A stretch of 64,000 bases of DNA from NCBI GenBank assembly GCA_963832165.1, contig CAWHTE010000001.1:83855-147854 (forward strand), read 5' to 3'. Made by a program: the position numbers and the translations under genes. The stretch's first letter is position 1, and the number at the start of each line of letters is the position of its first letter. This document shows, piece by piece, positions 38,859 through 57,229 of this stretch. The notes under the pieces were generated by a model that ran no database searches, was not told the DNA's origin, and worked only from the letters and a program-made list of their open reading frames with translations. This stretch comes from an uncultured delta proteobacterium. Its GTDB lineage: Bacteria; Myxococcota_A; UBA9160; SMWR01.

Positions 38859-39488
38859 CTACTGCGGCGGCGCGGGCGCGGGGGCAGGCGCAGGTGCTTC
38901 GTTGCCGAAATCCACCGTGGGCGGCTTCGCGATCGCCTTCTCGTCTTCGACCGTGAAGCTCGGCTTGGTCTGGAAGCCGAACATCATCGCCGTGAGATTG
39001 CTCGGGAACGAGCGCACCATGACGTTGAACTCGCGCACGGCCTCGATGTAGCGGTTGCGCGCCACGGTGATGCGGTTCTCGGTGCCCTCGAGCTGGGCCT
39101 GGAGGTCGCGGAAGCCCTGATCGGCCTTCAGCTGCGGGTAGTTCTCCGCCACCACGAGCAGGCGCGACAGCGCCGAGGTCATCTCGTTCTGCGCGGCCTG
39201 GAACTTCGCGAACGCCTCCGGATCGTCGATCATCTGCGGAGTCACCTGCATGCTTCCCACGCGCGCGCGCGCTTCGGTCACTTGCGTGAGCACGTCCTTC
39301 TCGTGTGCGGCATAACCCTTCACGGTGTTCACGAGGTTGGGCACGAGGTCGTTGCGGCGCTGGTACTGGTTCAGCACCTCGGCCCACGTGGCCTTCACGC
39401 CCTCATCGAGCGTCTGCAGGCGGTTGTAGCCGCAGCCGCCGAGCAGCACCGTGATCGAGATCAGGATCGCGAGCGAGATCCGTTGCAT
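38859..39488 (-). CDS. lemA: LemA family protein
   Basis: The 209-aa protein has a lipobox-like LLGGCGYN followed by the LemA pattern NLVNTVKGYAAHEKDVLTQVTEARA...AENYPQLKADQGFRDLQAQLEGTENRI. Confidence 0.9.
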   Translation of the reverse strand: MQRISLAILISITVLLGGCGYNRLQTLDEGVKATWAEVLNQYQRRNDLVPNLVNTVKGYAAHEKDVLTQVTEARARVGSMQVTPQMIDDPEAFAKFQAAQNEMTSALSRLLVVAENYPQLKADQGFRDLQAQLEGTENRITVARNRYIEAVREFNVMVRSFPSNLTAMMFGFQTKPSFTVEDEKAIAKPPTVDFGNEAPAPAPAPAPPQ

Positions 39489-39499
39489 CGGGTCCTCCG

Positions 39500-40283
39500 T
39501 CACATTCCGTAGATCATGCGGCCACCGTCGACCGTGATCAGGTCGCCCGTGTGATAGCGCGCGGCGTCGCTGATCAGGTAGACCACGATCCCCGCGATCT
39601 CGTCGGGCTCGGCCATCCGGCCGAGCGGGATCCGCGTGATCGCCGCCTGGCCGAGCGGGTGCGCGTCGTCGAACGGCACCATCTCGGTCTTCGTGAGCCC
39701 CGCGCACACCATGTTCGCGCGGATCTGGTGCGGACCGAGCTCGAGCGCAAAGGTGCGGATCAGACCCGCCACCGCGCTCTTCGCGGCCGCGTAGTGGCCG
39801 ATCCCGGGCACGCCGGCGAAGTTGGTCAGGCTGCCCGTCGCGACGAGCGAGCCCGCCGCGATCGCCGGCCTTCACCCGCGCCACCATGTGCCGCGCGCCC
39901 TCGCGCAGCGTGATGAACGCGCCGTGCTGCGCCACGCGCAGGAGCGCGTCGTACTTCTCGAGCGTCATGTCGACGAGGGGCGAGATCGTGGCGGAGCCCG
40001 CGTTCGCGATCACGCCGTCGAGCCGCCCCATCGCCTCGAGCGCGCGCGCGAAGCCGCGCTGCTGCGCGGCCTCGTCGGAGACGTCGACCGCGTCGGTCAG
40101 CACGCGCACGCCGTGCTTGCGCAGCCGCTCCGCAGCTTCGGCGTTGCGGTCCTCGCGCCGGCCCCAGATCACCACGTCGCCGCCCGCGAGTGCAATCGCT
40201 TCGGCGAAGCCGAAGCCCAGACCCGAGTTCGCTCCGGTGATCAGCGTGACCTTGCCGGAGAGGTCGAAGGGGTGGGAGGGCAT
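39500..40283 (-). pseudogene. SDR-family oxidoreductase; extra base in CCC run 39852-39854 as assembled
   Basis: MPSHPFDLSGKVTLITGANSGLGFG lies in the frame of ORF 38859..40352. The catalytic YAAAKSA and the C-terminal part lie in ORF 39500..39811. Removing one base gives DRGGSLVATGSLTNFAG. Confidence 0.8.
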
Positions 40284-40335
40284 CGCCGCGCCACCGTAGC
40301 TCAAGCCCGGTTCGCCGCGAGTCGATCCATCGGCC

Positions 40336-40560
40336 ATGGAATCGAGACGCAAGAACGAGTGTCCGCGCTGTGGTTTCGTCTACACCGCGTTCAACAGGCC
40401 CCGGCCCGCGAACAGCACCTTCGGAGAGCGGTTCGCCCGAAGCCTGCGCGATCAGGGGCGACACGGGCTCGGAGCGTTCGGGAGAGTTCGTTATGTCGCG
40501 GCCGAACACACGCGGCCGTTCCAGTGCCGCTGCGGCACGTGGTTGCAAGCGGCTCCGTGA
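40336..40560 (+). CDS. Small zinc-ribbon protein; an in-frame TGA separates it from a downstream membrane-helix ORF
   Basis: CPRCG...CRCG forms a four-Cys ribbon. ORF 40573..40920 is in the same frame after TGA 40558-40560 and encodes hydrophobic helices (IAVLAVLHGYL, FAVPIGLWIGY). Third-position GC is lower than in the neighbours. The region would otherwise be a 450-nt gap. Confidence 0.35.
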   Translation: MESRRKNECPRCGFVYTAFNRPRPANSTFGERFARSLRDQGRHGLGAFGRVRYVAAEHTRPFQCRCGTWLQAAP

Positions 40561-46190: not shown

Positions 46191-47069
46191 TCAGCGCCCG
46201 CGCCGCACCTCGAGCGCGACGCCGCACAGGATCGCCGTGGCGCCGATGAGCGCGAGCGCACCCGTGCGCTCGCCGAGCCCGAGCGTGCTCGCGGCGAGGC
46301 CCACGATCGGCTGCACGAAGATCATCACGCCCATCGTACCCGCGCGCGTGCGATGCAGCGCCCAGTTCCAGAGCCACGTGACGAGCGCGGTCGAGGTCGC
46401 AGCCAGCACGAACACCCAGAGCAGCGCGGGAACCGCACGCGCGGGATCGACGGACTCCGTGCTCGCGAGCAGCGCGAGCGGCGGCAGCGTGAGCGCGACC
46501 GCCGCGAGCGAGACGCGGCCCTCGTCGTGGCGCTCGAGCAGCGACTTGGCGCCGAGCGTGTAGATCGCCCACGCGAGATGGCCGGCCGCCATCAGCACAT
46601 CGCCGAGCGCGTCGCCGAGATCGGGGCGCAGCCCGTCCTGCAGCACGACGAGCCCCGCCCCGAGCGTGCCGAGCGCGACTGCGATCGCGCGCGTGCGCGG
46701 CAGGCCCTCGGAGAGCAGGAGCGCGCTGCCGAGCACGATGCCGATCGGTTCGAGCGGCGTGAGCAGCGCGTAGGCGACCGCGGTGGAGCGCTCGGCGCCC
46801 GTCGCGAGCAGGACCTGCGGCAGCGCGAAGCCGCCCCACGAGATCAGCAGCAGGAGTGCGATGTCGCGAGCCGTCCAGGGAGCGCGGCGGCGCGGCGCTG
46901 CGCTGCGCCCGACGTGCGCGAGCGCGAACAAGAACACGATGCCGATCGCCTGGCGCGAGAACACGAGCGTCCAGGGCGGAAGGCCCGCGAGCGCGAGCTT
47001 GGTCCAGATCGGGGTGAGCCCGCCGAGCACCTGGGCGGCGAGTGCGGCGGCGAGCACGAGCGGCGGCAT
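46191..47069 (-). CDS. DMT-superfamily (EamA-like) transporter
   Basis: The protein has about ten TM helices and a duplicated EamA-like organisation, and is 292 aa. Confidence 0.8.
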   Translation of the reverse strand: MPPLVLAAALAAQVLGGLTPIWTKLALAGLPPWTLVFSRQAIGIVFLFALAHVGRSAAPRRRAPWTARDIALLLLISWGGFALPQVLLATGAERSTAVAYALLTPLEPIGIVLGSALLLSEGLPRTRAIAVALGTLGAGLVVLQDGLRPDLGDALGDVLMAAGHLAWAIYTLGAKSLLERHDEGRVSLAAVALTLPPLALLASTESVDPARAVPALLWVFVLAATSTALVTWLWNWALHRTRAGTMGVMIFVQPIVGLAASTLGLGERTGALALIGATAILCGVALEVRRGR

Positions 47070-47082
47070 GGCGCGCGCACGC

Positions 47083-47198
47083 TAGCGCGCCCTTCTCGCC
47101 GGGCCTTCGCGCTCGCTAACCGCTCGCGCTCGGGCTCCGAGCCTTCGCTCGGCTACGCCTCGCTGCGCGTCGGCCGACTCCGTCGGCCTCCTTGCTGG
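47083..47198. repeat. Copy B of the short repeat family, with an embedded perfect hairpin
   Basis: The sequence GCGCGCCCTTC...GGCCTTCGCGCTCGC...GCCTTCGCTCGGCTACGCCTCGCTGCGCG is present. The core at 47146-47169 matches 33302-33325 at 22 of 24 positions. It is followed by GGCCGAC-TCC-GTCGGCC (47172-47188) and CTTGCTGG, as in copy A. Confidence 0.6.
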
Positions 47199-47530
47199 AG
47201 CAGCGCCTTCAGATCCGGCGGGATCTCCATGCGCTCGAAGAAGCCGACGTTCGCGCCGCCCGTGTTGCCGCCGGGCGGAATGCCGAGCGCCGACCCGATC
47301 GCCGCGGCGGGCAGCCGCACGATCTGCCCCACGATCTCGCGCACGTCGCGGCGCAGCCAGCCGATGTGCAGCATCTCGACGTGCGTGCGCACGTGCGGCA
47401 CGACGTACTGCTGACCCAGGATGTGCGCGCGCTCGAGGTGGCGGAACGCGTCGTCGAGCGAGCCCGCGCGGCGCGCGGCTTCGGCCTCGCGCAGCTCGGA
47501 CTCGAACGCCGAGCGCAGCTTCGGATTCAT
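47153..47530 (-). CDS. DUF3703-like small protein
   Basis: The start is ATG 47530 (ATGA overlap with the P450 stop at 47527). FRHLERAHILGQQYVVPHVRTHVEML is typical of the family as I recall it. The 3' end runs into repeat copy B. Confidence 0.6.
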   Translation of the reverse strand: MNPKLRSAFESELREAEAARRAGSLDDAFRHLERAHILGQQYVVPHVRTHVEMLHIGWLRRDVREIVGQIVRLPAAAIGSALGIPPGGNTGGANVGFFERMEIPPDLKALLQQGGRRSRPTRSEA

Positions 47531-48774
47531 CGCGCCGAGGATAGTCGAACCCGCAGGTGATCGGGACCGCGGAAGGCGACGCCCCGGATGCACGGGGCCC
47601 GGAAGCGCGGATCGACATGGAGCTCGGCGAAGCGATCGAGCAGCGCGCCGATCGCGACGGTCGCTTCGAGGATCGCGAGGCGCGAGCCCGCGCAGTAGTG
47701 GCGGCCGAGCCCGAACGCGAGGTGCGCCTCGCCCTGCCGATCGACGTCGAAGCGGTCCGGGTCGGGGAAGCGGGTCTCGTCGCGATTCGCGGAGCCGATC
47801 CCGAGCACGAGGTCGCGGCCGCGCGCGATGCGCGTCCCCGCGATCTCGACGTCCTCCGTCGCCGTGCGCGAAAGGATCTGGATCGGCGACTCCCAGCGCA
47901 GCGTCTCCTCGAGCAGACGGCCGATCCGGCTGCGGTCCGCGCGCACCGACGCGAAGAGCGCCGGGTCGCGCAGCATCGCGAAGAGCGCACTCCCGAGCAG
48001 GTGATAGGTCGTCTCGGCTCCCGCGAGCACGAGCAGGTAGAGAAAGCTGATCACCTCCTCGTCGGTCAGCGCACCTCCAAGGGCGGTGGCCGAGGCGAGC
48101 TCGCTGATCAGATCGTTGCCGGGCCGGGATCGCTTCTGGGAGACGAGCGGCGCGAGCGCGGCCGCCATGTTCTTCACCGCGGCGAAGCCGCGCCCGGGAT
48201 CGGTCGCGACCATCGAGAGATCGGCCGACCAGCCGTGAAACGTCCTCACGTGCTCGGGCGCAAGACCGAGGATCTCCGTGAACACGCGCAGCGGATACAC
48301 GTACGTGAACTCCGCCACGAGATCGGCGGCATCCCGCTGCTCGAACGAGTCGATCACGGCCTCGGCGATCGACGCGACGATGCGCGGAAACTCACCCGCG
48401 AGCGAGCGCGGAGCGAGCGACGGCGTGATCAGGCTGCGGTGCTTCAAGTGCTCCCGGCCGTCCATTCCGATCAGCGTCCGCCCGATCACGATGCCGATGC
48501 CGCGGTCCGTGTTCGACCGGCTCGAGAAGCGCTCGTGGTCGCGCAGGACGGCGAGTACGTCGTCGTAGCGGGACACGAAGTACGAAGTCCCGGAGAGCAG
48601 CTCGACCACGGGCGCTTCGCGGCGCGCTCGGGCATAGAGCGGGTAGGGGTTCGCGATCGGCGCGGTCGGCCCGGCCAGGAACATGTCGGGGACCGTGAGC
48701 GGCAGGATCTCGTCGGTGGACCCGATCGTTTGCAGCGAACTGATATCGACAGCGGCGGCGGCTACATCGTGCAT
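47527..48774 (-). CDS. Cytochrome P450
   Basis: The heme-thiolate loop is FGLGRHYCAGSRLA, the ExxR motif is EETLRW, and the I-helix is LAGAETT. Confidence 0.9.
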   Translation of the reverse strand: MHDVAAAAVDISSLQTIGSTDEILPLTVPDMFLAGPTAPIANPYPLYARARREAPVVELLSGTSYFVSRYDDVLAVLRDHERFSSRSNTDRGIGIVIGRTLIGMDGREHLKHRSLITPSLAPRSLAGEFPRIVASIAEAVIDSFEQRDAADLVAEFTYVYPLRVFTEILGLAPEHVRTFHGWSADLSMVATDPGRGFAAVKNMAAALAPLVSQKRSRPGNDLISELASATALGGALTDEEVISFLYLLVLAGAETTYHLLGSALFAMLRDPALFASVRADRSRIGRLLEETLRWESPIQILSRTATEDVEIAGTRIARGRDLVLGIGSANRDETRFPDPDRFDVDRQGEAHLAFGLGRHYCAGSRLAILEATVAIGALLDRFAELHVDPRFRAPCIRGVAFRGPDHLRVRLSSAR

Positions 48775-48779
48775 GGATC

Positions 48780-48808
48780 AGTCAATCGAGACGCGCCACC
48801 CCTGTCAA
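48780..48808 (-). promoter_or_regulatory. Candidate promoter in front of the P450 gene
   Basis: On the minus strand, a perfect TTGACA (48808-48803) is followed by a 17-nt spacer and a weak -10 TTGACT (48785-48780). The ATG is at 48774, so the transcript would be leaderless. Confidence 0.25.
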
Positions 48809-48889
48809 CGAAAATCCGAGCGGCGAGACGAGCCGTTAGGCGCAAGTCGCGCGCAGGCGATGTGCAACTGCGACGCGAACAGCGCTCCG

Positions 48890-50629
48890 CTACGCGAGTC
48901 CGAGCTCCGCGAGCACGGCCATCTGCGCCAGGTCGCCGTCGATCACGAGGCGCCGCGTGTTGAAGGCCTCCGCGCCCGAGAGATCTCCGTTCGCGATCTG
49001 CAGATAGCTCGCCGCATCGGCACGGATCGTCACCGTGGCATCGGCGCGCTCGGCGGGCGCGGTGTCGATCGTGAGCGCGCCGTCGCGCACCGCGAGGATC
49101 CACGTGCCGCCGTGCTCTCCCGTGAGCGCGTACTGCACCACGAGCTCGACGCCCGCGGCCTTCGCGGGATCGAAGCGGCTCGCCATCGCGGCGAACAGCT
49201 GCTCGACGGAGTCGACGCGGCGGGCCGCGAGCCGCGCGGCGCGCGCCCGCTCGCGCGCGAGCACGTCGGCTTCCATCGCCGCGATCGACTCGGCGAGGAT
49301 CGCCGCGATCTGGTCCGCGCACGCGCGATCGATCGTGAGCGGAGGCGCGAGTCCCACCACCTCCGTCCCCATCGCGCGCACGTAGAGCCCGCGCTGCCAG
49401 GCTTCCGCTTCCACGCGTGCACAGGCCGAGTGCGGCTTCGAGAAGCCGCGCCGCGTCGCCTTGTCGGCGACGAGCTCGATGCCGATCATGAGCCCCACGC
49501 CGCGGATATCGCCCACGGAATCGAAGCCGCCGAGCATCTCGCGCAAGCGCTCGATCAGATAGGCGCCCACGTCGGCTGCGTTCTCGGCCAGGCGTTCGCG
49601 TTCGAGGATCTCGATGTTGGCGAGGGCCGCGGCGCAGCACGTGGGATGGCCCATGTACGTGAAGCCGTGGCTGATCGGCATCTGGTTCGGCAGCTTCGCG
49701 CTGATCGTCTGGTAGATCTCCTCGGAGACCACCGACGCGCCGAGCGGCAGATAGCCGCTCGTGATCCCCTTCGCGAGCGTCACGACGTCGGGCCGCACGC
49801 GATAGCGCTCGAAGCCGAACATCGTTCCCGTGCGCCCGAAGCCCGTCACGACCTCGTCGAGGATCAACAGGATCCCGTGGCGGTCGCAGATCTCGCGGAT
49901 GCGCTCGAAGTAGTCGTCGGGCGGGGGGATGATGCCGCCTGCGCCGTACACGGGCTCGGCGATGAACGCCGCGATCGTCTCGGCGCCGTCGCGCTCGATC
50001 AGGCGCTCGAGCTCGTCGGCGCACGCGAGCCGGCAGCTCGGATAGGTCTTGCCGAGCTCGCACTTGAAGCAGTAGGGTGCCGCGACGTGCGCGAAGCCGG
50101 GCGCCTCGGGTCCGAAGTTCCAGCGCAGCGGCATGATGCCCGTGGCGGTCATCGTCGCGATCGTGAGTCCGTGATAGGCATGGTGGCGAGCCACGATCGT
50201 CGTGCGCCGCTCCTCGCCGCGCAGCGCCCAGTAGAGGCGCACGAGCTTGATCGACGTCTCGTTGGCCTCCGACCCGCCCGACGAGAACATCACGTGCGAG
50301 AGGCCGTACTCGCGCGGGAACATCGAGCACAGCTTCTCGGCGAGCTCGATCGCGCGCGGGTGGGACTGGCCGTGGAAGGTCGTGAAGTACTCGAGCGTCT
50401 CCATCTGCTCGCGCACGGCCGCGATGATCTCGGGGCGCCCGTGCCCGACCGCCACGCACCAGAGCCCGGAGAACCCGTCGATCAGGCGGTGTCCGCGATC
50501 GTCGGTGATCCACCAGCCGTCGCCTTCGACGATCACGCGCGCGCCGTCGCTCTCCATCTCGCGTGGCGGCGTGAGCGGGTGGATCAGATGGGCGGCGTCG
50601 CGCTCGGCGAGCGGGGTCCGCCCGGGCAT
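48890..50629 (-). CDS. Class III (omega) aminotransferase fused to a C-terminal SCP2 sterol-carrier-like domain
   Basis: The aminotransferase part carries SGGSEANE, LILDEVVTGFGRTG and the PLP lysine in TLAKGITSGY. The last approximately 108 aa (48890 to about 49220) read FDPAKAAGVELVVQYALTGEHGGTWILAVRDGALTI...NGDLSGAEAFNTRRLVIDGDLAQMAVL, which matches the SCP2 pattern. Confidence 0.85.
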   Translation of the reverse strand: MPGRTPLAERDAAHLIHPLTPPREMESDGARVIVEGDGWWITDDRGHRLIDGFSGLWCVAVGHGRPEIIAAVREQMETLEYFTTFHGQSHPRAIELAEKLCSMFPREYGLSHVMFSSGGSEANETSIKLVRLYWALRGEERRTTIVARHHAYHGLTIATMTATGIMPLRWNFGPEAPGFAHVAAPYCFKCELGKTYPSCRLACADELERLIERDGAETIAAFIAEPVYGAGGIIPPPDDYFERIREICDRHGILLILDEVVTGFGRTGTMFGFERYRVRPDVVTLAKGITSGYLPLGASVVSEEIYQTISAKLPNQMPISHGFTYMGHPTCCAAALANIEILERERLAENAADVGAYLIERLREMLGGFDSVGDIRGVGLMIGIELVADKATRRGFSKPHSACARVEAEAWQRGLYVRAMGTEVVGLAPPLTIDRACADQIAAILAESIAAMEADVLARERARAARLAARRVDSVEQLFAAMASRFDPAKAAGVELVVQYALTGEHGGTWILAVRDGALTIDTAPAERADATVTIRADAASYLQIANGDLSGAEAFNTRRLVIDGDLAQMAVLAELGLA

Positions 50630-50632
50630 CGG

Positions 50633-51448
50633 CTAGCGCGCACCGCGCTTCGCGCGCGCGTCGATCGTGTTGCGCTTCACCGCGCGCCGCATGAACTCGG
50701 GTGCGACCGCCTGGATCACGTAGGCGGGCGAGATCCCGCCCGGGTAGGTGATCTCGTGCTTGCCCTTCGCAAGCGCATCCATCGTCGCGTCGACGAGCGC
50801 TTCCACCTCCACCATGCCGCGCTTCGCGGCCGGCGGCATGCGCGACAGCGCCTCCTCGTCGAAGAACGGCGTGCGGATCACGCCCGGGCACACCGTGAGC
50901 ACGTGCACGCCCGCGTCCTCGACCTCGAGCGAGAGCGAGGCGGCCAGTCCGACCATCGCGAACTTCGAGGCCGCGTAGGCCGACTCCTCGGGAGGTGCGA
51001 TCTTGCCCGCGACCGACGCGACGAACACGAGCCAGCCGCGCCGCTGCTCCACCATCGCAGGCAAGAGCGCCTTCGTGAAGTAGAGCGTTCCGAAGTAGTT
51101 CACGCGCATCACGCGTTCCATGTCCTCGACCGACCACTCGAGGAAGGTGCGGTGATGTCCGTAGCCCGCATTGTTCACGAGCATGTCGATGCCGCCCCAG
51201 ACCTCGCGCGCGCGCGCCGCCGTGGCCGCGACCTCCGCCGCGCTGGACACGTCGCACGGCAGCACCACGGCCTCGCTTCCGCCGGAGCGGATCTCGGCCG
51301 CGAGCTTCTCGAGCTCCTCCGCGCGGCGCGCCACGAGCGCCACGCGCGCGCCCTCGCGCGCGAGCCGCAGCGCGAGCGTGCGGCCGATGCCGCTCGAGGC
51401 GCCCGTCACGAGCGCGCGCAGCCCCTGGTAGGAGCGCAGCCGCGTCAT
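50633..51448 (-). CDS. SDR-family oxidoreductase
   Basis: The start is ATG 51448 (ATGA overlap with the TetR stop at 51445). Motifs TGASSGIGR, NNAG and YAASKFA are present. Confidence 0.85.
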   Translation of the reverse strand: MTRLRSYQGLRALVTGASSGIGRTLALRLAREGARVALVARRAEELEKLAAEIRSGGSEAVVLPCDVSSAAEVAATAARAREVWGGIDMLVNNAGYGHHRTFLEWSVEDMERVMRVNYFGTLYFTKALLPAMVEQRRGWLVFVASVAGKIAPPEESAYAASKFAMVGLAASLSLEVEDAGVHVLTVCPGVIRTPFFDEEALSRMPPAAKRGMVEVEALVDATMDALAKGKHEITYPGGISPAYVIQAVAPEFMRRAVKRNTIDARAKRGAR

Positions 51449-52086
51449 CGCGCGTTCTCGACGAGCGCGAGGATCACCGACTGCAGGTGCTGCTTGGTGC
51501 GCTCGCGGATGCGCGGGTCGGAGAGGTCCTTTCCGAACAGCTTCTTGTAGTGCGCAGTCGACAGGATGTGGTGGTGCAAGATTCCCTCCACGGTGATCAG
51601 CAGCAGGCCCAGATCGTGTTTGGGGGCGCCGAGCCTCTGGCCCGAGAGCGACTCGTCGATGAACTGCACCCAGCTCTGCTCCTTCAGCGAGACGCCCTTC
51701 GCGAGGCCTTCGCCGAGTGTTGCGCGTACCGAGAGCGCCACCCAGCCGCGCTTCTCGAGAAAGAAATCGAACAGCTCCTCGACGACCTTCTCGACCGTCG
51801 TCGCGAGATCGCCCTGGCCCGCGACCACCGCGCCGACGCGCTTGAGGATCTCGTCGTCCCAGCGCGAGAGCACCGCCTGGTACAGGCCCGGCTTCGAGCC
51901 GAAGTGGTGCTGGATCGTGAACGGGCGCACGCCGCATGCGCGCGAGAGCTCGCGCACCGACACGCCGCGGTAGCCGCGGTTCGCGAACAGGCGCTCGGCG
52001 CGGTCGAGGATCCGGGTGCGCGTGCGCTCGGCCTCCTCCTGCGAGCGCCGGCCGGCCGGGCGCGACTGGACTTTCTTATTGGCCAT
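51445..52086 (-). CDS. TetR/AcrR-family transcriptional regulator
   Basis: The start is ATG 52086 (MANKKVQSRPAG...). The HTH region is RILDRAERLFANRGYRGVSVRELSRACGVRPFTIQHHF. No obvious SD is present, so the start is uncertain. Confidence 0.8.
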   Translation of the reverse strand: MANKKVQSRPAGRRSQEEAERTRTRILDRAERLFANRGYRGVSVRELSRACGVRPFTIQHHFGSKPGLYQAVLSRWDDEILKRVGAVVAGQGDLATTVEKVVEELFDFFLEKRGWVALSVRATLGEGLAKGVSLKEQSWVQFIDESLSGQRLGAPKHDLGLLLITVEGILHHHILSTAHYKKLFGKDLSDPRIRERTKQHLQSVILALVENAR

Positions 52087-52119
52087 GTGTACAGTAAAAC
52101 ACCGCGCGCGCTCCGAGTC

Positions 52120-52131
52120 AACGCGCGCGTT
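52120..52131. promoter_or_regulatory. Perfect 12-bp palindrome in the TetR/dehydrogenase divergent intergenic region (operator candidate)
   Basis: AACGCGCGCGTT lies at 52120-52131, midway between ATG 52086 (minus strand) and ATG 52170 (plus strand). TGTACA at 52088-52093 is a second short palindrome. Confidence 0.3.
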
Positions 52132-52169
52132 CCCCGAAACCCCCCGGAATCCAGGCATCTGGAGGTCGC

Positions 52170-53417
52170 ATGCGCGCGCTCGTGATCGGCAGCGAGATGG
52201 CGCGGCTCATCGTCACCCGGTTGCTCGCCGCGCTCTCGCCGCGCGCGTTCGTGGGCCCGACCTCGACGCTGCGGCTGTGCGAAATCCCCGAGCCCACGCT
52301 GCCGGCACCCGATTGGGCGGTCGCGCGCACGCGCCTGTGCGGTCTGTGCGGCAGCGACTACAAGCAGGTGTTCATGAACGGGGCGTTCGACAGCCCGATG
52401 ACCGCGATGATCTCGTGGCCGCAGGTGCTCGGGCACGAAGTGGTCGGCGTGATCGACGAGGTCGGACCCGCAGCGACGCGCCGCCGGATCGGCGAGCGCG
52501 TGGTGTTGAACCCGTGGCTGTCGTGCGAGACGCGCGGCCTGCCGCTGTGCGACTGGTGCGAGGAGGGCGACCTCGCGCAGTGCCTGAACTTCGCGCGCGG
52601 CAGCGCGGCACCCGGCATCCACACCGGCAACAGCTCGACCGCGACGGGCGGATTCGCGCAGCGCGTGCCCGCGCACGAATCGCAGTGGATCCCGATTCCC
52701 GACGAGATCAGCGACGACGCGGCCGTGCTCGCCGACCCGTTCTCGGTCTCGCTGCACGCGATCCTGCGCACGCCGCCGCCGCCGGGCGGCACCGCGCTCG
52801 TGTACGGTGCCGGCACGCTGGGTCTGTTCGCGATCGCGATCCTGCGCCTGCTCCACCCGCACGTACGCGTGCTCGCGGTGGCGCGCTTCGATCACCAGGC
52901 GCAGCTCGCGGAGAAGTTCGGTGCGGATCGCGTGTTTTCTTACCGGCCGGCGCTCGGGATCATCGAGGCCGTCGCGGAGGCGTGCGGCGCCGAGATCGCG
53001 CGCCCCTGGAGAGGGCTCCCGATGCTTCTCGGCGGTGCCGACGTGGTGTACGACACCGTGTCGTCGCCCGAGACTCTCGAGGTCGGACTCCGGATCGCGA
53101 ACATCCGCGGGAGCATCGTGGCGCTCGGCGTCGAGCCGCCGCGCCGCTTCGAGTGGACGCCGCTCTACTTCAAGGAGATCTCGATCGTCGGATCGAACGG
53201 CTTCGGGATCGAGGAGTACGACGGGCGCCGGCAACACGCGATCGAGTGGTACTTCGAGTTCCTGCGCACGAAGCAGATCGATCTGACTCCGATCATCACG
53301 CACCGCTTCCCGCTCGCGGGCTACCGCGATGCCTTCATGACCTGTTATTCGCAAGGCGACAACGGCGCCGTGAAGGTGCTGTTCGACCGCTTCACCGACG
53401 AGGAGACTTTGCGATGA
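52170..53417 (+). CDS. Zinc-dependent alcohol dehydrogenase family protein (long form)
   Basis: Zinc ligands lie in LCGLCGSDYK and GHEVVGV. A structural Zn Cys cluster lies in CETRGLPLCDWCEEGDLAQC. The NAD fold motif is VYGAGTLGLF. Its stop overlaps the next start (ATGA at 53414-53417). Confidence 0.85.
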   Translation: MRALVIGSEMARLIVTRLLAALSPRAFVGPTSTLRLCEIPEPTLPAPDWAVARTRLCGLCGSDYKQVFMNGAFDSPMTAMISWPQVLGHEVVGVIDEVGPAATRRRIGERVVLNPWLSCETRGLPLCDWCEEGDLAQCLNFARGSAAPGIHTGNSSTATGGFAQRVPAHESQWIPIPDEISDDAAVLADPFSVSLHAILRTPPPPGGTALVYGAGTLGLFAIAILRLLHPHVRVLAVARFDHQAQLAEKFGADRVFSYRPALGIIEAVAEACGAEIARPWRGLPMLLGGADVVYDTVSSPETLEVGLRIANIRGSIVALGVEPPRRFEWTPLYFKEISIVGSNGFGIEEYDGRRQHAIEWYFEFLRTKQIDLTPIITHRFPLAGYRDAFMTCYSQGDNGAVKVLFDRFTDEETLR

Positions 53418-56400
53418 GCCGCGTGCTCTTGGGAATCGATCTCGGAGGCGGCAGCGTCCACTGCACGCTGCTGGACGCCGACACGGGCGCGCGCTTCGAG
53501 GCCGCGCTCGCGATCACGAGCCAGTCGGCGGAAGGCACGAGCGGCCTCGGCTACGAGATCGCCACCGATGAGCTCTGGGCGCGCGTGGGCGAGACCACGC
53601 GCGCGGTGCTCGCTTGCGCGGGCGCCACGGGCGATGCCGTCGCGGGCGTGTCGGTGACAGCGATGCGCTTCACGTCGGTGGTGCTCGACGCGGCCGGCGA
53701 GGTGCTGTTCGCGGTGCCCAACCGCGATGCGCGCTCGGTCGGCGAGAGCATGCGGATCGCGGCCGAGCGCGGCCAGGCGGTGCTCGCGACCAGCGGCATG
53801 TGGCCGCTGCCGATCCACGCTGCGCCGCGCCTGTCGTGGCTGCGCAGCGCGCGGCCTGACGTGTTCGGGCGCGCGGTTACGCTGCTCTCGCTCTCGGACT
53901 GGCTGAACTTCCGGCTCTGCGGACGGCGGATCACCGACGAGACACAGGCGGGCTGCACGGGCCTGTTCGATCTGCGCAAACGCGAGTGGAACGCGGAGCT
54001 GATCGACGCGTTCGGGCTGCCGCGCGCGATCTTCCCCGAGGTGCGACCGTCGGGCGAGCGGATCGGCGAGCTCGACGCGCGCGCCGCGCGCGAGCTCGGG
54101 CTCGCACCCGGCACGCCCGTGGCGCTCGGCGGCGGCGACACGCGCTGCGGACTGCTCGGCGCGGGCGCGATCGCCGACGGCGACGTGGGCCTGATTGCGG
54201 GAACCACCGCTCCGCTCGAGCTCGTGACCGACGAGCCCGTGATCGACGGCGAGGGACGGCTGCGCAGCGGGCTTCACGCGGTGCCGGGGCGTTATGTGCT
54301 CGAGGCGAACGTGGGACCGGTCGGCGAGGGCCTGGCCTGGCTCGCGCGCCTGCTCCACCCGGACGACGCGCGGCCCGACGACCGCTTTGCGGCCGAGGCT
54401 TCGACCGCGGCGATCGGCTCGGCCGCGATGCTCGCGAACGTGGGCGCACTCGTGGCGAACGATCGCCAGCCCGCTTTCCCCGTCGGCATGTACTCGCTCT
54501 CCCACATGACGGGCACGCAGGGGCGCAGTGCGCGCGCGAGCCTCGCGCGCTCCGCGCTCGAGGGAGTGGCGTGTGCGGTGCGCGCGAACCTCGAGCAGCT
54601 CACGCGCGTCACGGGGCGCGATCTGCGCCGCATTCATCTCGCGGGCGGGCTCTCGCGCAGCGCGCTGTTCGCGCGGATCCTCGCGGGCATCACGCGCGCC
54701 GAGGTGGTGCGCGCGGCGGCGCCCGAGGCGACCGGCCTCGGCGCTGCGCTGTGCGCGGGCATCGGCGCGGGCGTGTTCGCGGACGCGCTCGACGCGGTGA
54801 GCCACGGCGTGCGCGCAGCGGAGACCTCCGCGCCGCAGGCGGCCGAGGCCGACGCGTACGAGCGGCTCTACGAGAGCTGGAGCGAGCTGCGCGACGCGGC
54901 CGAGCAGACCACGGCGCCGATCGCGATGCGCCACACGGTTCCGGCCGCGCTCGCCGCCTCGCAGCGCAACGGGCGGCGCGCCAAGGCCGCGCATCGGCCC
55001 AAGGCGCTCGTCACCGCGGCGTTCGACGACGCGTCGATCGAGCGGCTGCGCGGCTTCGCCGACGTCGAATACGCGAGCTTCCGCGACCGCATGCAGCTGC
55101 TCACGGGCGCGAGCCTGGTCTCGGCGCTCGCCGACTGCGACGTGCTGGTCACCGAGGTCGACGTCGTCGACGCGAAGGCGCTCGAAAAGCTTCCGAACCT
55201 GCGCGTGGTGGCGGCCTGCCGCGGCGACGCCGTGAACGTGGACGTGGCCGCGTGCAGCGCGTTCGGGATCCCGGTGCTGTTCGCGCCGGGCCGCAACGCC
55301 GACGCGGTGGCCGACCTCACCGTCGCGTTCCTGCTCAACCTCGCGCGGCGGCTGCCCGCGGCCACGAAGTTCCTCGCCGACCCGGCGGTGACGGCCGGCA
55401 ATCTCGCGGCGATGGGCAAGGCGTTCCGGGGCCTGCAGGGCTACGAGCTCTGGTCGAAGACGGTGGGTCTGGTCGGACTCGGCGCGGTCGGGCGCGGCGT
55501 GGCGCGCCGGCTCTCGGGCTTCGGCGTGCGCCTGCTGGTCGCCGATCCGTACGTCTCCGCGGAGGAGGCCGCGCTCGCGGGCGCCGAGAAGGTCGAGCAG
55601 GGCGAGCTCCTGCGCACGAGCGACTTCGTGAGCCTGCACGCGGCCGTCACCGACGCGACGCGCGGGCTGCTCGGCCCCGCGCAGTTCGCCGCGATGAAGC
55701 CCGGCGCGTATCTGATCAACACCGCACGCGCGGCGCTGGTCGACGAGGCCGCGCTGCTCGCGGCGCTCGACAGCGGGCACCTCGCGGGCGCTGCGCTCGA
55801 CACGTTCGCGGTCGAGCCGCCCGGCGCCGATCACCCGCTCGTGCGCCACGGCAGCGTGATCCACACGCCGCACATCGGCGGCAACACGAACGAGGTCGCT
55901 GCGCACCAGGGCCGGAGTATCTCCGATGCGCTCGAGCAGCTCGTGCGCGGTGAGGCGCCGCGCTGTCTGCTCAATCCCGAGGCGCTCGCGGGCTTCAGCT
56001 GGACGGGTTCGCGCCGCGTGCCGACGGCCGACGAGCTCACCGCGCTCGCCAATCGCGCGGGCCCGGCCGTCACCGACCTGCAGCGCGACGCGCAGGCCGA
56101 GGCCCAGGAGGAGAAGCTCGAGCCGAGCGCCGCGCCCGCGGAGACGGTCGCGGCGATGAAGCGGATCCTCGAGACGTTCACGGCCGCGATGGCGCAGGAC
56201 GAGCGCGTGCACGCGTTCAGCGCCGACAAGGACGTCGCGCTCTACTTCGTGCTGCCCGACATCGGCCTCGACCTCCACATCGCGCTGCGCGAGGGACGGG
56301 TCTCGGGCGGGCTCGGCAAGCCCGAGGGTGGCTCCGTGGTCCAGCTGCGCATGCGCGCGGCGATCCTGGACGGGATGTTCACGGGCAAGGTGAACGCGAT

Positions 56401-57229
56401 GGAAGCCGCGATGCAGGGCGAGGTCGCGTTCACGGGCGACGCCGGCAAGGCGATGGCGATCCAGCAGCTCCAGGGCGACATGCGGCGGCTCTACAGCGCC
56501 GCGCGCGAAGAGGTGGGCGATCCGGGCGACCTCGCCGCGATTCCGCAGCCGGGCGCGGCGCCGGGCGCCGCCGCTGCGGCGAAGCCCGTCGGCTCCGACG
56601 ACGTCCGCGTCGAGATCGTCTCGATCACCCAGGAGCTCTACGAGAACCAGGTGATCACCGCGACGGGCGGCAACGTGTGCGCGCGGATCCCGGGCAAGCC
56701 GGACGAGGTCTGGATCACGCCGAGCCAGCTGTTCAAGGGCGATCTGCGGCCCGAGGTACTCGTGCGGATCGACCTCGATGGCAAGTCGCTCGACGAGGGC
56801 TCGCGCTCGGCGTCGTCCGAGTGGAGCATGCACACGCAGATCCTCAAGAAGAAGCCCGAGGCGAAGGCCGTGATCCACGCCCACGCGCCGTTCGCGACCA
56901 CGCTCGCGAACACGGGGCTGCCGTTCCTGCCGATCAGCACCGAGGCCGCCTTCTTCGGCGACATCCCGCGCGTGCCGTTCATCATGCCCGGCACCGACGC
57001 GCTCGCGGAGGCGGTCTCCGAAGCGATGAAGGACAGCTGGGCCGTGTTCATGGTGAACCACGGGCTGGTCGTGTGCGGGCGCAGCCTGCGCCGCGCGGCC
57101 GACATGGTGGAGATCGTCGAGCGCTCGGCACAGCTGATCCTGGGCTGCTATGCGGTGGGCAAGGAGCCGCCGGTGCTGCCCGAGAAGACGGTCGCGATGC
57201 TGCGCAAGATGGGCGATCTGGTCGCGTAG
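53414..57229 (+). CDS. 1271-aa four-domain fusion: FGGY carbohydrate kinase, D-isomer 2-hydroxyacid dehydrogenase, SCP2-like domain, class II aldolase/adducin domain
   Basis: The ORF is uninterrupted in one frame. The FGGY part (53414 to about 54910) carries GIDLGGGS, ALGGGDTRCG and HLAGGLSRSA. The 2-HADH part (about 55003-55990) carries GLVGLGAVGRGVA, NTARAALVDE and TPHIGGNT. The SCP2 part (about 56140-56520) carries VALYFVLPDIGLDLHIAL...GKVNAMEAAMQGEVAFTGDAGKAM. The aldolase II part (about 56605-57229) carries SSEWSMH, VIHAHAP and MVNHGLVVCG. Confidence 0.85.
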   Translation: MSRVLLGIDLGGGSVHCTLLDADTGARFEAALAITSQSAEGTSGLGYEIATDELWARVGETTRAVLACAGATGDAVAGVSVTAMRFTSVVLDAAGEVLFAVPNRDARSVGESMRIAAERGQAVLATSGMWPLPIHAAPRLSWLRSARPDVFGRAVTLLSLSDWLNFRLCGRRITDETQAGCTGLFDLRKREWNAELIDAFGLPRAIFPEVRPSGERIGELDARAARELGLAPGTPVALGGGDTRCGLLGAGAIADGDVGLIAGTTAPLELVTDEPVIDGEGRLRSGLHAVPGRYVLEANVGPVGEGLAWLARLLHPDDARPDDRFAAEASTAAIGSAAMLANVGALVANDRQPAFPVGMYSLSHMTGTQGRSARASLARSALEGVACAVRANLEQLTRVTGRDLRRIHLAGGLSRSALFARILAGITRAEVVRAAAPEATGLGAALCAGIGAGVFADALDAVSHGVRAAETSAPQAAEADAYERLYESWSELRDAAEQTTAPIAMRHTVPAALAASQRNGRRAKAAHRPKALVTAAFDDASIERLRGFADVEYASFRDRMQLLTGASLVSALADCDVLVTEVDVVDAKALEKLPNLRVVAACRGDAVNVDVAACSAFGIPVLFAPGRNADAVADLTVAFLLNLARRLPAATKFLADPAVTAGNLAAMGKAFRGLQGYELWSKTVGLVGLGAVGRGVARRLSGFGVRLLVADPYVSAEEAALAGAEKVEQGELLRTSDFVSLHAAVTDATRGLLGPAQFAAMKPGAYLINTARAALVDEAALLAALDSGHLAGAALDTFAVEPPGADHPLVRHGSVIHTPHIGGNTNEVAAHQGRSISDALEQLVRGEAPRCLLNPEALAGFSWTGSRRVPTADELTALANRAGPAVTDLQRDAQAEAQEEKLEPSAAPAETVAAMKRILETFTAAMAQDERVHAFSADKDVALYFVLPDIGLDLHIALREGRVSGGLGKPEGGSVVQLRMRAAILDGMFTGKVNAMEAAMQGEVAFTGDAGKAMAIQQLQGDMRRLYSAAREEVGDPGDLAAIPQPGAAPGAAAAAKPVGSDDVRVEIVSITQELYENQVITATGGNVCARIPGKPDEVWITPSQLFKGDLRPEVLVRIDLDGKSLDEGSRSASSEWSMHTQILKKKPEAKAVIHAHAPFATTLANTGLPFLPISTEAAFFGDIPRVPFIMPGTDALAEAVSEAMKDSWAVFMVNHGLVVCGRSLRRAADMVEIVERSAQLILGCYAVGKEPPVLPEKTVAMLRKMGDLVA

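Follow-up and report, generated by a model that had tools for sequence, protein, structure and literature searches.

An omega-transaminase carrying a C-terminal SCP2 domain: a conserved two-domain enzyme that may act on hydrophobic carbonyls or amines

Why should a transaminase carry a lipid-carrier domain at its C-terminus? The question is raised by one gene in a 64,000-nucleotide stretch of contig CAWHTE010000001.1 (assembly GCA_963832165.1, recorded as an uncultured delta proteobacterium), hereafter the window, whose product, here called AT-SCP2, joins a class III aminotransferase (AT) to a domain of the sterol carrier protein 2 (SCP2) type. Omega-transaminases are mainstays of chiral-amine biocatalysis, held back in practice chiefly by poor handling of bulky substrates of low solubility. 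On the evidence of profiles and structure models, AT-SCP2 is a genuine two-domain enzyme, consisting of a fold-type-I class III amine:pyruvate omega-transaminase and an SCP2 domain of the alkylsulfatase C-terminal type. The architecture is uncharacterised, yet visible in databases: automatic annotation at JGI labels relatives "aminotransferase/putative sterol carrier protein", and a full-text literature search for SCP2 or sterol carrier together with transaminase found no description of it.

The transaminase part (Table 1) has relatives of known structure. Pfam Aminotran_3 (PF00202) covers residues 31-447, almost the whole profile being matched (positions 11-401 of 403; 345.7 bits, cut-off 30.5; E 3.9e-103), and the PDB ranking is headed by the Thermomicrobium roseum enzyme Tr-omega-TA (6io1), followed by other amine, polyamine and beta-alanine:pyruvate transaminases. 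K287, D258 and E225 correspond to K289, D260 and E227 of 6io1 and are all invariant in an alignment of 71 sequences. The study of 6io1 names L23, F89* and Y154 (P-pocket), W61 and I263 (O-pocket), K289 and R416 as substrate or catalytic residues (PMC6502798). Their counterparts in AT-SCP2, taken from a HMMER alignment, are L19, F85, Y152, W57, V261, K287 and R418, each invariant or at least 90% conserved in the 71-sequence alignment. Because all seven mapped pocket and catalytic residues are kept, the domain is, by its sequence, a canonical dual-recognition omega-transaminase. Comparison with NCBIfam models, among them PRK07481, PRK07480, PRK07036, AptA, BioA and the daptide aminotransferase, left all 25 of the matches listed under their curated cut-offs (best PRK07481, 500.3 bits against 575), so AT-SCP2 fits no named equivalog. 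A preliminary description of the locus, made from the letters alone, had recognised a full class III aminotransferase with its pyridoxal phosphate (PLP) lysine in TLAKGITSGY, and both Pfam and the alignment of Lys287 with Lys289 of 6io1 uphold that call. Its premise that soluble transaminases normally act on small amines was too strong, as the subfamily has members active on bulky hydrophobic amines.

The same description had reported uninterrupted read-through into an Ala/Arg linker and an SCP2-like domain of ~108 aa, and this also stands: the frame is unbroken by any stop or frameshift between the two parts, and the SCP2 fold occupies residues ~473-579 (~107 aa). GC content at the three codon positions of the open reading frame (ORF) is 0.69/0.49/0.93, with uniform third-position GC (GC3), which is the pattern of real genes in this window of ~70% GC. 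An AlphaFold model of the whole protein, built on the 71-sequence alignment (mean predicted local distance difference test, pLDDT, 87.2; predicted template modelling score, pTM, 0.88), lays out the transaminase fold, a long helix at residues 435-468 and a helix/five-strand SCP2 fold at 475-575. The Ala/Arg-rich linker (ARERARAARLAARR, ~458-471) is modelled as the end of that helix, not as a disordered tether. When the model was compared with the PDB by Foldseek, only the first ~450 residues matched omega-transaminases (TM score 0.90 by target, 0.70 by query), and no solved transaminase had a C-terminal helix and SCP2 extension.

Two Pfam families recognise the C-terminal part, namely SCP2 (PF02036) at residues 486-574 (E 8.6e-12, 45.7 bits against a cut-off of 21.3) and Alkyl_sulf_C (PF14864) at residues 474-575 (E 9.3e-10, 39.2 bits against 27), and the SCP2 signature NG-LSG-AF...DGDL is kept. 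A fold search was needed because the single-sequence search of this part against the PDB was only marginal (E 0.04), although its top matches were all SCP2, the SCP2L domain of MFE-2 or alkylsulfatases. Modelled alone, residues 456-579 reach a pLDDT of 91, and Foldseek matches this model best to the SCP2-like domains at the C-termini of the alkylsulfatases YjcS, Pisa1, SdsA1 and SdsAP (E ~1e-7, root-mean-square deviation 2.1-2.3 A), and next to human SCP2, the SCP-2L domain of MFE-2, mosquito SCP-2 and UbiJ (probability 1.00, TM 0.5-0.7). SCP2 homology is therefore present by hidden Markov model, AlphaFold and Foldseek alike, and the refuting outcome named in the preliminary description, a C-terminal extension without such homology, is not what was found. 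AT-SCP2 is not itself a type III alkylsulfatase: it has the Alkyl_sulf_C match, and at the N-terminus Aminotran_3 stands in place of the metallo-beta-lactamase domain.

What kinds of enzyme share this SCP2 domain? A profile of the domain was searched against 1.84 billion representative proteins and found, beyond fragments of its own family, stand-alone SCP2 proteins of ~110 aa and varied fusions. The ten fusions scanned included a KshA-like Rieske oxygenase, an acyl-CoA synthetase with a ChsH2 zinc-ribbon, a thiolase, an FMN reductase, and SDR (short-chain dehydrogenase/reductase) or ketoacyl-synthase III-like proteins with a ChsH2 OB-fold. Judged by their domain families, the partners of the related SCP2 fusions belong mostly to steroid and lipid side-chain catabolism. 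Enzymes with one or two copies of the same SCP2 subtype are found in P0169, P0219, P0135, P0142, P0140, P0155, P0154, P0183 and P0214; P0127, P0131 and P0136 consist of two or three tandem SCP2 domains.

Is the fusion a lasting feature of the family or a local accident? A search of a 5.8-billion-protein collection listed 119 best clusters besides that of AT-SCP2 itself, and 116 of them carry PF00202 and PF02036 together at 61-89% identity. The fused clusters are 556-644 aa long, mostly 574-588, with one truncated entry of 444 aa, and their named sources are metagenome-assembled genomes (MAGs) of Acidimicrobiia/Acidimicrobiales. A scan of 185,579 species genomes returned 22 fused and six unfused orthologous loci; the record labels of two loci, L016 ("Bifidobacterium") and L021 ("Acidobacteria"), look wrong. 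The family is a compact clade, since clustering at 50% leaves a single representative of it. A tree built from only the transaminase domain places the unfused forms inside the fused ones, with the fusion as the ancestral state and at least two losses needed. The unfused orthologues end 5-20 residues past the last transaminase helix, i.e. at the linker, and no stand-alone SCP2 gene was found in their loci by tblastn at 1e-6 or by a six-frame profile search at E<=1, with positive controls at 5e-50 and 8e-47. Values of dN/dS are 0.31-0.41 in the SCP2 core (about 0.33 in summary) and 0.14-0.21 in the transaminase domain (about 0.16); by this measure the SCP2 domain is under purifying selection, though less constrained than the transaminase domain.

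These results bear directly on the idea that the fused gene is an artefact of assembly or annotation, or that an indel recently joined two genes at this locus. Frameshifts do occur in the AT-SCP2 gene of two nanopore-derived relatives, the long-read MAGs of the MFD series at L022 (10001-11716) and L046 (10001-11719), where the gene is broken several times; these are probably homopolymer assembly errors rather than pseudogenes. Against the artefact stand the 577-585 aa architecture in 116 independent clusters drawn from ENA, JGI, NCBI and Logan, the continuous frame with its uniform GC3, and a model that is confident over the domain junction. Cluster conservation, genome scan and tree together refute it, and we regard its chance of being right as negligible. 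The preliminary description had called for a search for the architecture in other genomes, and more than 100 sequence clusters share it. The outcome it had named as fatal, orthologues that keep SCP2 as a separate gene fused here by an indel, is likewise contradicted, as no orthologue was found that encodes SCP2 apart. The observation made at the outset is thus confirmed, and its functional interpretation, taken up below, is supported in part only.

A second feature sets the clade apart. A motif of four cysteines (Cys4; Table 1) is invariant in the 71-sequence alignment and in every orthologue, fused or unfused, and defines the AT(-SCP2) clade; it is missing from proteobacterial relatives (at most 42% identity) and from every solved omega-transaminase. 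Our guess from the sequence is that Cys4 forms a structural zinc site, or possibly an iron-sulfur site. If it does bind a metal, it would be a new structural feature for class III transaminases.

Table 1. Position of the AT-SCP2 gene, its parts and its neighbours in the window
Feature	Position	Strand	Remarks
AT-SCP2 gene	48890..50629	-	579 aa + stop, single ORF; both domains found by Pfam
Class III omega-transaminase domain, residues 1-455	49265..50629	-	best PDB match 6io1, E 1.7e-130
Cys187-x2-Cys190-x8-Cys199-x3-Cys203	50021..50071	-	confidently modelled loop, pLDDT 88-92; candidate metal site
PLP lysine K287 codon (TLAKGITSGY)	49769..49771	-	aligns with Lys289 of 6io1; invariant in 71 sequences
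R418 codon, carboxylate-binding "flipping" arginine	49376..49378	-	R416 of Tr-omega-TA; >=90% conserved
Ala/Arg-rich helical linker, residues 456-472	49214..49264	-	within helix 435-468 of the model
SCP2 domain, residues 473-579	48893..49213	-	Pfam SCP2; separate domain model
TetR-family regulator, first gene of the operon	51445..52158	-	Pfam TetR_N, E 5.7e-14; TetR adjoins AT in most orthologous loci
SDR oxidoreductase, directly upstream of AT-SCP2	50633..51448	-	Pfam adh_short, E 3e-58
Cytochrome P450 (P450a, CYP107/109-like), downstream of AT-SCP2	47527..48774	-	Pfam p450
DUF3703 gene, last gene of the operon	47153..47530	-	Pfam DUF3703, E 9e-40; ATGA overlap with P450a; kept in P0007, P0012 and G151
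Megaenzyme: FGGY kinase-2-hydroxyacid dehydrogenase-SCP2-class II aldolase in one protein	53414-57229	+	

In which genetic setting does the enzyme work? The order TetR-SDR-AT-SCP2-P450-DUF3703 is found in the window and in L001, P0007 and P0012, which form a subclade at 84-89% identity; the closest relative, L001 (DATFWW010000173.1), is the same contig as C173 of the same-genus genome G153. The record of L001 bears the label "Myxococcota bacterium", which is probably wrong: L001 groups with the genus of the window's genome, which has a WhiB gene and whose gene relatives are Acidimicrobiia. The AT-SCP2 start codon lies 3 nt past the SDR stop, and the 115 nt between AT-SCP2 and P450a hold no terminator that could be found. 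A promoter and terminator scan of 47000-52300 gave nothing informative within the operon, its sole terminator-like hairpin lying in the TetR/ZnADH intergenic region. The PDB neighbours of P450a are CYP107/109/106/125/142-type hydroxylases of macrolides, vitamin D and steroids.

Across the family an SDR adjoins the aminotransferase in ~26 of 33 orthologous loci and a TetR gene, usually of the TetR_C_41 type, recurs as well, the usual arrangement being SDR-TetR-AT on one strand with junctions that overlap or nearly do so. The SDR and TetR of the window show ~38% identity or no detectable similarity to the majority type, which indicates that the same kinds of partner were kept while the actual genes were exchanged. 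Other genes turn up at these loci less consistently, namely those for a hydrolase of the Amidohydro_3 family (517-610 aa, ~10 loci), a Zn-dehydrogenase of 410 aa, a PhyH dioxygenase and a GNAT protein of 361 aa, and NCBIfam and Pfam scans of the recurrent neighbours (Amidohydro_3, PhyH, GNAT, TetR_C_41, SDR, DUF3703) yielded only generic names, with no clue to the substrate. At L062 (8760-13251) AT-SCP2 has neither SDR nor TetR and lies beside two RPE65-type carotenoid/stilbene cleavage oxygenases and a Rieske oxygenase. Oxygenases of the RPE65 and Rieske types generate hydrophobic aldehydes. At L058 acyl-CoA dehydrogenases and a thiolase are found near AT-SCP2.

A recent change at this locus can be read from the same-genus genome G151. 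Its locus L069 (G151:C303) runs in the order EamA-DUF3703-SDR-TetR opposite ZnADH-megaenzyme, and at 998-1035 P450a and AT-SCP2 are missing, corresponding to window 47531-50655, with DNA that aligns on both sides. The P450a and AT-SCP2 pair was gained or lost cleanly as a cassette, with its ends at gene boundaries, and forms one unit of presence and absence relative to G151.

What, then, does the SCP2 domain do for the transaminase? The best explanation, to which we assign a probability of roughly 0.55, is that AT-SCP2 is an omega-transaminase acting on a hydrophobic carbonyl or amine recruited by its SCP2 domain, within an operon whose enzymes would turn alcohol, carbonyl and amine into one another on a hydrophobic scaffold, using pyruvate/alanine as co-substrate and under the control of a ligand-sensing TetR. 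The SCP2 domain would bind an amphiphilic carbonyl or amine of low solubility by its apolar portion and present the bound molecule to the transaminase funnel, or may take it from the SDR or the P450. The effect would be a higher local substrate concentration and the shielding of a reactive lipophilic aldehyde or ketone. The pathway could run in one direction through P450 hydroxylation, SDR oxidation and transamination, or in the other as a reverse deamination by which lipophilic amines or amides are scavenged for their nitrogen or carbon. Because a small O-pocket is kept (W57, V261), its residues predict a terminal aldehyde/primary amine or a methyl-ketone/2-amine, not an internal ketone. The preliminary description had proposed a hydrophobic amine or aldehyde as substrate; this is plausible given SCP2 relatives on lipid- and steroid-type enzymes, the alkylsulfatase folds, and the SDR and P450 partners, with support that is indirect throughout. 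An amphiphilic or lipophilic amine or carbonyl is the most economical reading because the likeness of the fold to that of alkylsulfatases, the partnership with a P450 and an SDR, and the occasional neighbours at L062 and L058 all point to it.

Several observations weigh against a hydrophobic substrate. Unfused orthologues occupy the same SDR-TetR context, so the SCP2 domain is dispensable for the core reaction and is an accessory to it, and it evolves about 2x as fast as the transaminase domain. Some of the nearest transaminases of known activity use small soluble amines (putrescine, beta-alanine and GABA types), and two orthologous loci have polyamine-type neighbours, i.e. an arginase-family gene, agmatine deiminase and a CN-hydrolase. 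The SDR and TetR of the window are of other subtypes than in most loci, so the partner logic is one of analogy, not orthology. Finally, no aldehyde dehydrogenase is conserved near AT-SCP2, although simple primary-amine catabolism predicts one.

Some of these points lend themselves to a different account, in which the enzyme handles small soluble amines such as putrescine, cadaverine, beta-alanine or GABA in the manner of SpuC, and the SCP2 domain serves in oligomer stabilisation, in docking to a membrane or partner, or in regulation. The presence of putrescine, polyamine and beta-alanine:pyruvate transaminases among the best NCBIfam and PDB relatives speaks for it, as do the unfused orthologues in the same operon context, the polyamine-type genes beside two orthologues and the relaxed constraint on SCP2. 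It has to contend, however, with NCBIfam matches that all fall short of their cut-offs, with pocket residues that are those of the aromatic-amine-active Tr-omega-TA rather than of a diamine-specific site, with a conserved partner that is an SDR and not an aldehyde dehydrogenase, with SCP2 relatives that sit overwhelmingly on lipid enzymes, and with polyamine-type neighbours that are not kept across loci. We consider this account unlikely. Lower still do we place an HpnO-like role, in which a hopanoid side-chain aldehyde would be aminated to aminobacteriohopanepolyol. HpnO is a class III aminotransferase that acts on a lipid aldehyde, an SCP2 domain would suit a hopanoid, and the genome encodes a squalene-hopene cyclase; yet the cyclase is on contig C4 and AT-SCP2 on C1, hpn genes were seen in none of the ~30 orthologous loci, and AT-SCP2 is patchy even within the genus and belongs to a TetR-regulated accessory operon. 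Neither location near an hpn/shc cluster nor co-distribution with shc was found, the genes being on separate contigs and same-genus genomes occurring without AT-SCP2, and such a role is very improbable.

Another proposal came with the preliminary description itself, which saw AT-SCP2 handing over its substrate inside one cluster with the SCP2-containing megaenzyme. On this model AT-SCP2 would be a dedicated step of the megaenzyme pathway, for example aminating or deaminating a lipid aldehyde or amino-polyol lipid that the megaenzyme produces or uses up. The arrangement invites this, since in the window, L001 and P0007 the megaenzyme is encoded divergently from the TetR operon, the two units sharing one TetR-controlled region, and both proteins have an SCP2 domain. 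The distributions of the two genes differ, however. Of 31 relatives, 21 have the megaenzyme, at 45-84% identity, whereas AT-SCP2, with nine candidates per genome scored, was found in one of 151 genomes of the class, the window's own, and two near-complete genomes of the same genus are without it. No class III aminotransferase lies within 8 kb of the megaenzyme at 12 relatives' loci (L071-L082), where the genes that recur with it encode a P450 and a TetR (directly upstream on the same strand in four of the 12), and no megaenzyme lies within 7-10 kb at ~27 other AT-SCP2 loci. Individual loci split the pair in both ways: P0012, whose orthologue is 84% identical, has the five-gene operon without the megaenzyme, and G151 keeps the megaenzyme cluster and lacks exactly AT-SCP2 and P450a. 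Co-inheritance is rejected on these counts. A recent duplication as the origin of the window's two SCP2 domains was rejected as well, as BLASTP gives E 0.15-0.8 between them and they are not close paralogues. Because the distributions differ and the loci of G151 and P0012 separate the genes, the pairing is a cassette-level event within one genus, and any shared pathway would be local. AT-SCP2 and the megaenzyme are neighbours through recent gene-cassette history, not conserved pathway partners; a hand-over between them is not borne out as a general rule, and a dedicated megaenzyme step is distinctly unlikely.

Recruitment of a hydrophobic substrate thus remains our preferred explanation, and it has a bolder form that we hold only tentatively. 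AT-SCP2 might be the first transaminase in nature to bring its own lipid chaperone. SCP2 would hold a water-insoluble aldehyde or ketone, made by the SDR and the P450 that is transferred together with AT-SCP2, and pass it on to the PLP site, so that a lipid amine of an undescribed class would be made or degraded, and Cys4 would be a metal-binding, possibly redox-sensitive element. If recruitment by SCP2 is correct, the natural lipid-binding fusion would offer a template for engineering transaminases towards hydrophobic substrates. It would also suggest that uncultured Acidimicrobiia, which are widespread in soil, groundwater and freshwater, metabolise lipophilic amines or amides in a way so far unrecognised.

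Some further features of the genome may be recorded here. It holds six SCP2-domain ORFs in total, and a strong SCP2 match in a 259-aa frame (C4:210345-210599) lies 85 kb from the squalene-hopene cyclase (G000:C4:294989-295933) on the same contig. A WhiB gene is located at G000:C2:30088-30279. In the window, a 497-aa ORF at 38859-40352 (minus strand) scores as a truncated SDR (34-159) followed by a LemA domain (323-482), an unusual fusion unless the ORF listing ran two genes together.

How does AT-SCP2 compare with known systems? Its closest known enzymes are the (S)-selective class III omega-transaminases, such as Tr-omega-TA (6io1), those of Vibrio fluvialis and Chromobacterium violaceum, and polyamine:pyruvate transaminases of the SpuC type. 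The likeness to 6io1 extends to 47-48% identity over ~450 residues, a TM score of 0.90, the same PLP lysine and flipping arginine, and matching P- and O-pocket residues; unlike AT-SCP2, all solved relatives are single-domain proteins of ~450 aa. Class III transaminases that act on hydrophobic aldehydes include the CpkG type (polyketide alkaloids), plant GAME12 and HpnO, whose substrate aldehydes often come from oxidation by a P450 or dehydrogenase or from reduction of a thioester. These enzymes are not known to have an SCP2 domain and belong to biosynthetic clusters of natural-product pathways, whereas AT-SCP2 belongs to a small TetR-regulated operon of patchy distribution.

On the side of the SCP2 domain, the fold is likewise attached to or associated with enzymes for water-insoluble substrates in the SCPx thiolase-SCP2 protein, the dehydrogenase-hydratase-SCP2L protein MFE-2 (HSD17B4) and UbiJ/UbiT of the ubiquinone metabolon. 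None of these partners is an aminotransferase, and AT-SCP2 implies no coenzyme A-thioester chemistry. The alkylsulfatases, whose substrates are long-chain alkyl sulfates, have an SCP2-like domain placed C-terminal to the catalytic one (PMC5426288). The type III members SdsA1, Pisa1, SdsAP and YjcS follow the same logic as AT-SCP2, a soluble catalytic domain with an SCP2-type domain at its C-terminus. They differ in having a catalytic domain of the metallo-beta-lactamase fold and a central dimerisation domain, whereas AT-SCP2 has a PLP transaminase and no such central domain, and the sequence identity is only 15-24%. If the SCP2 domain of AT-SCP2 recruits its substrate in this way, a PLP enzyme would join the short list of catalytic domains that have recruited SCP2.

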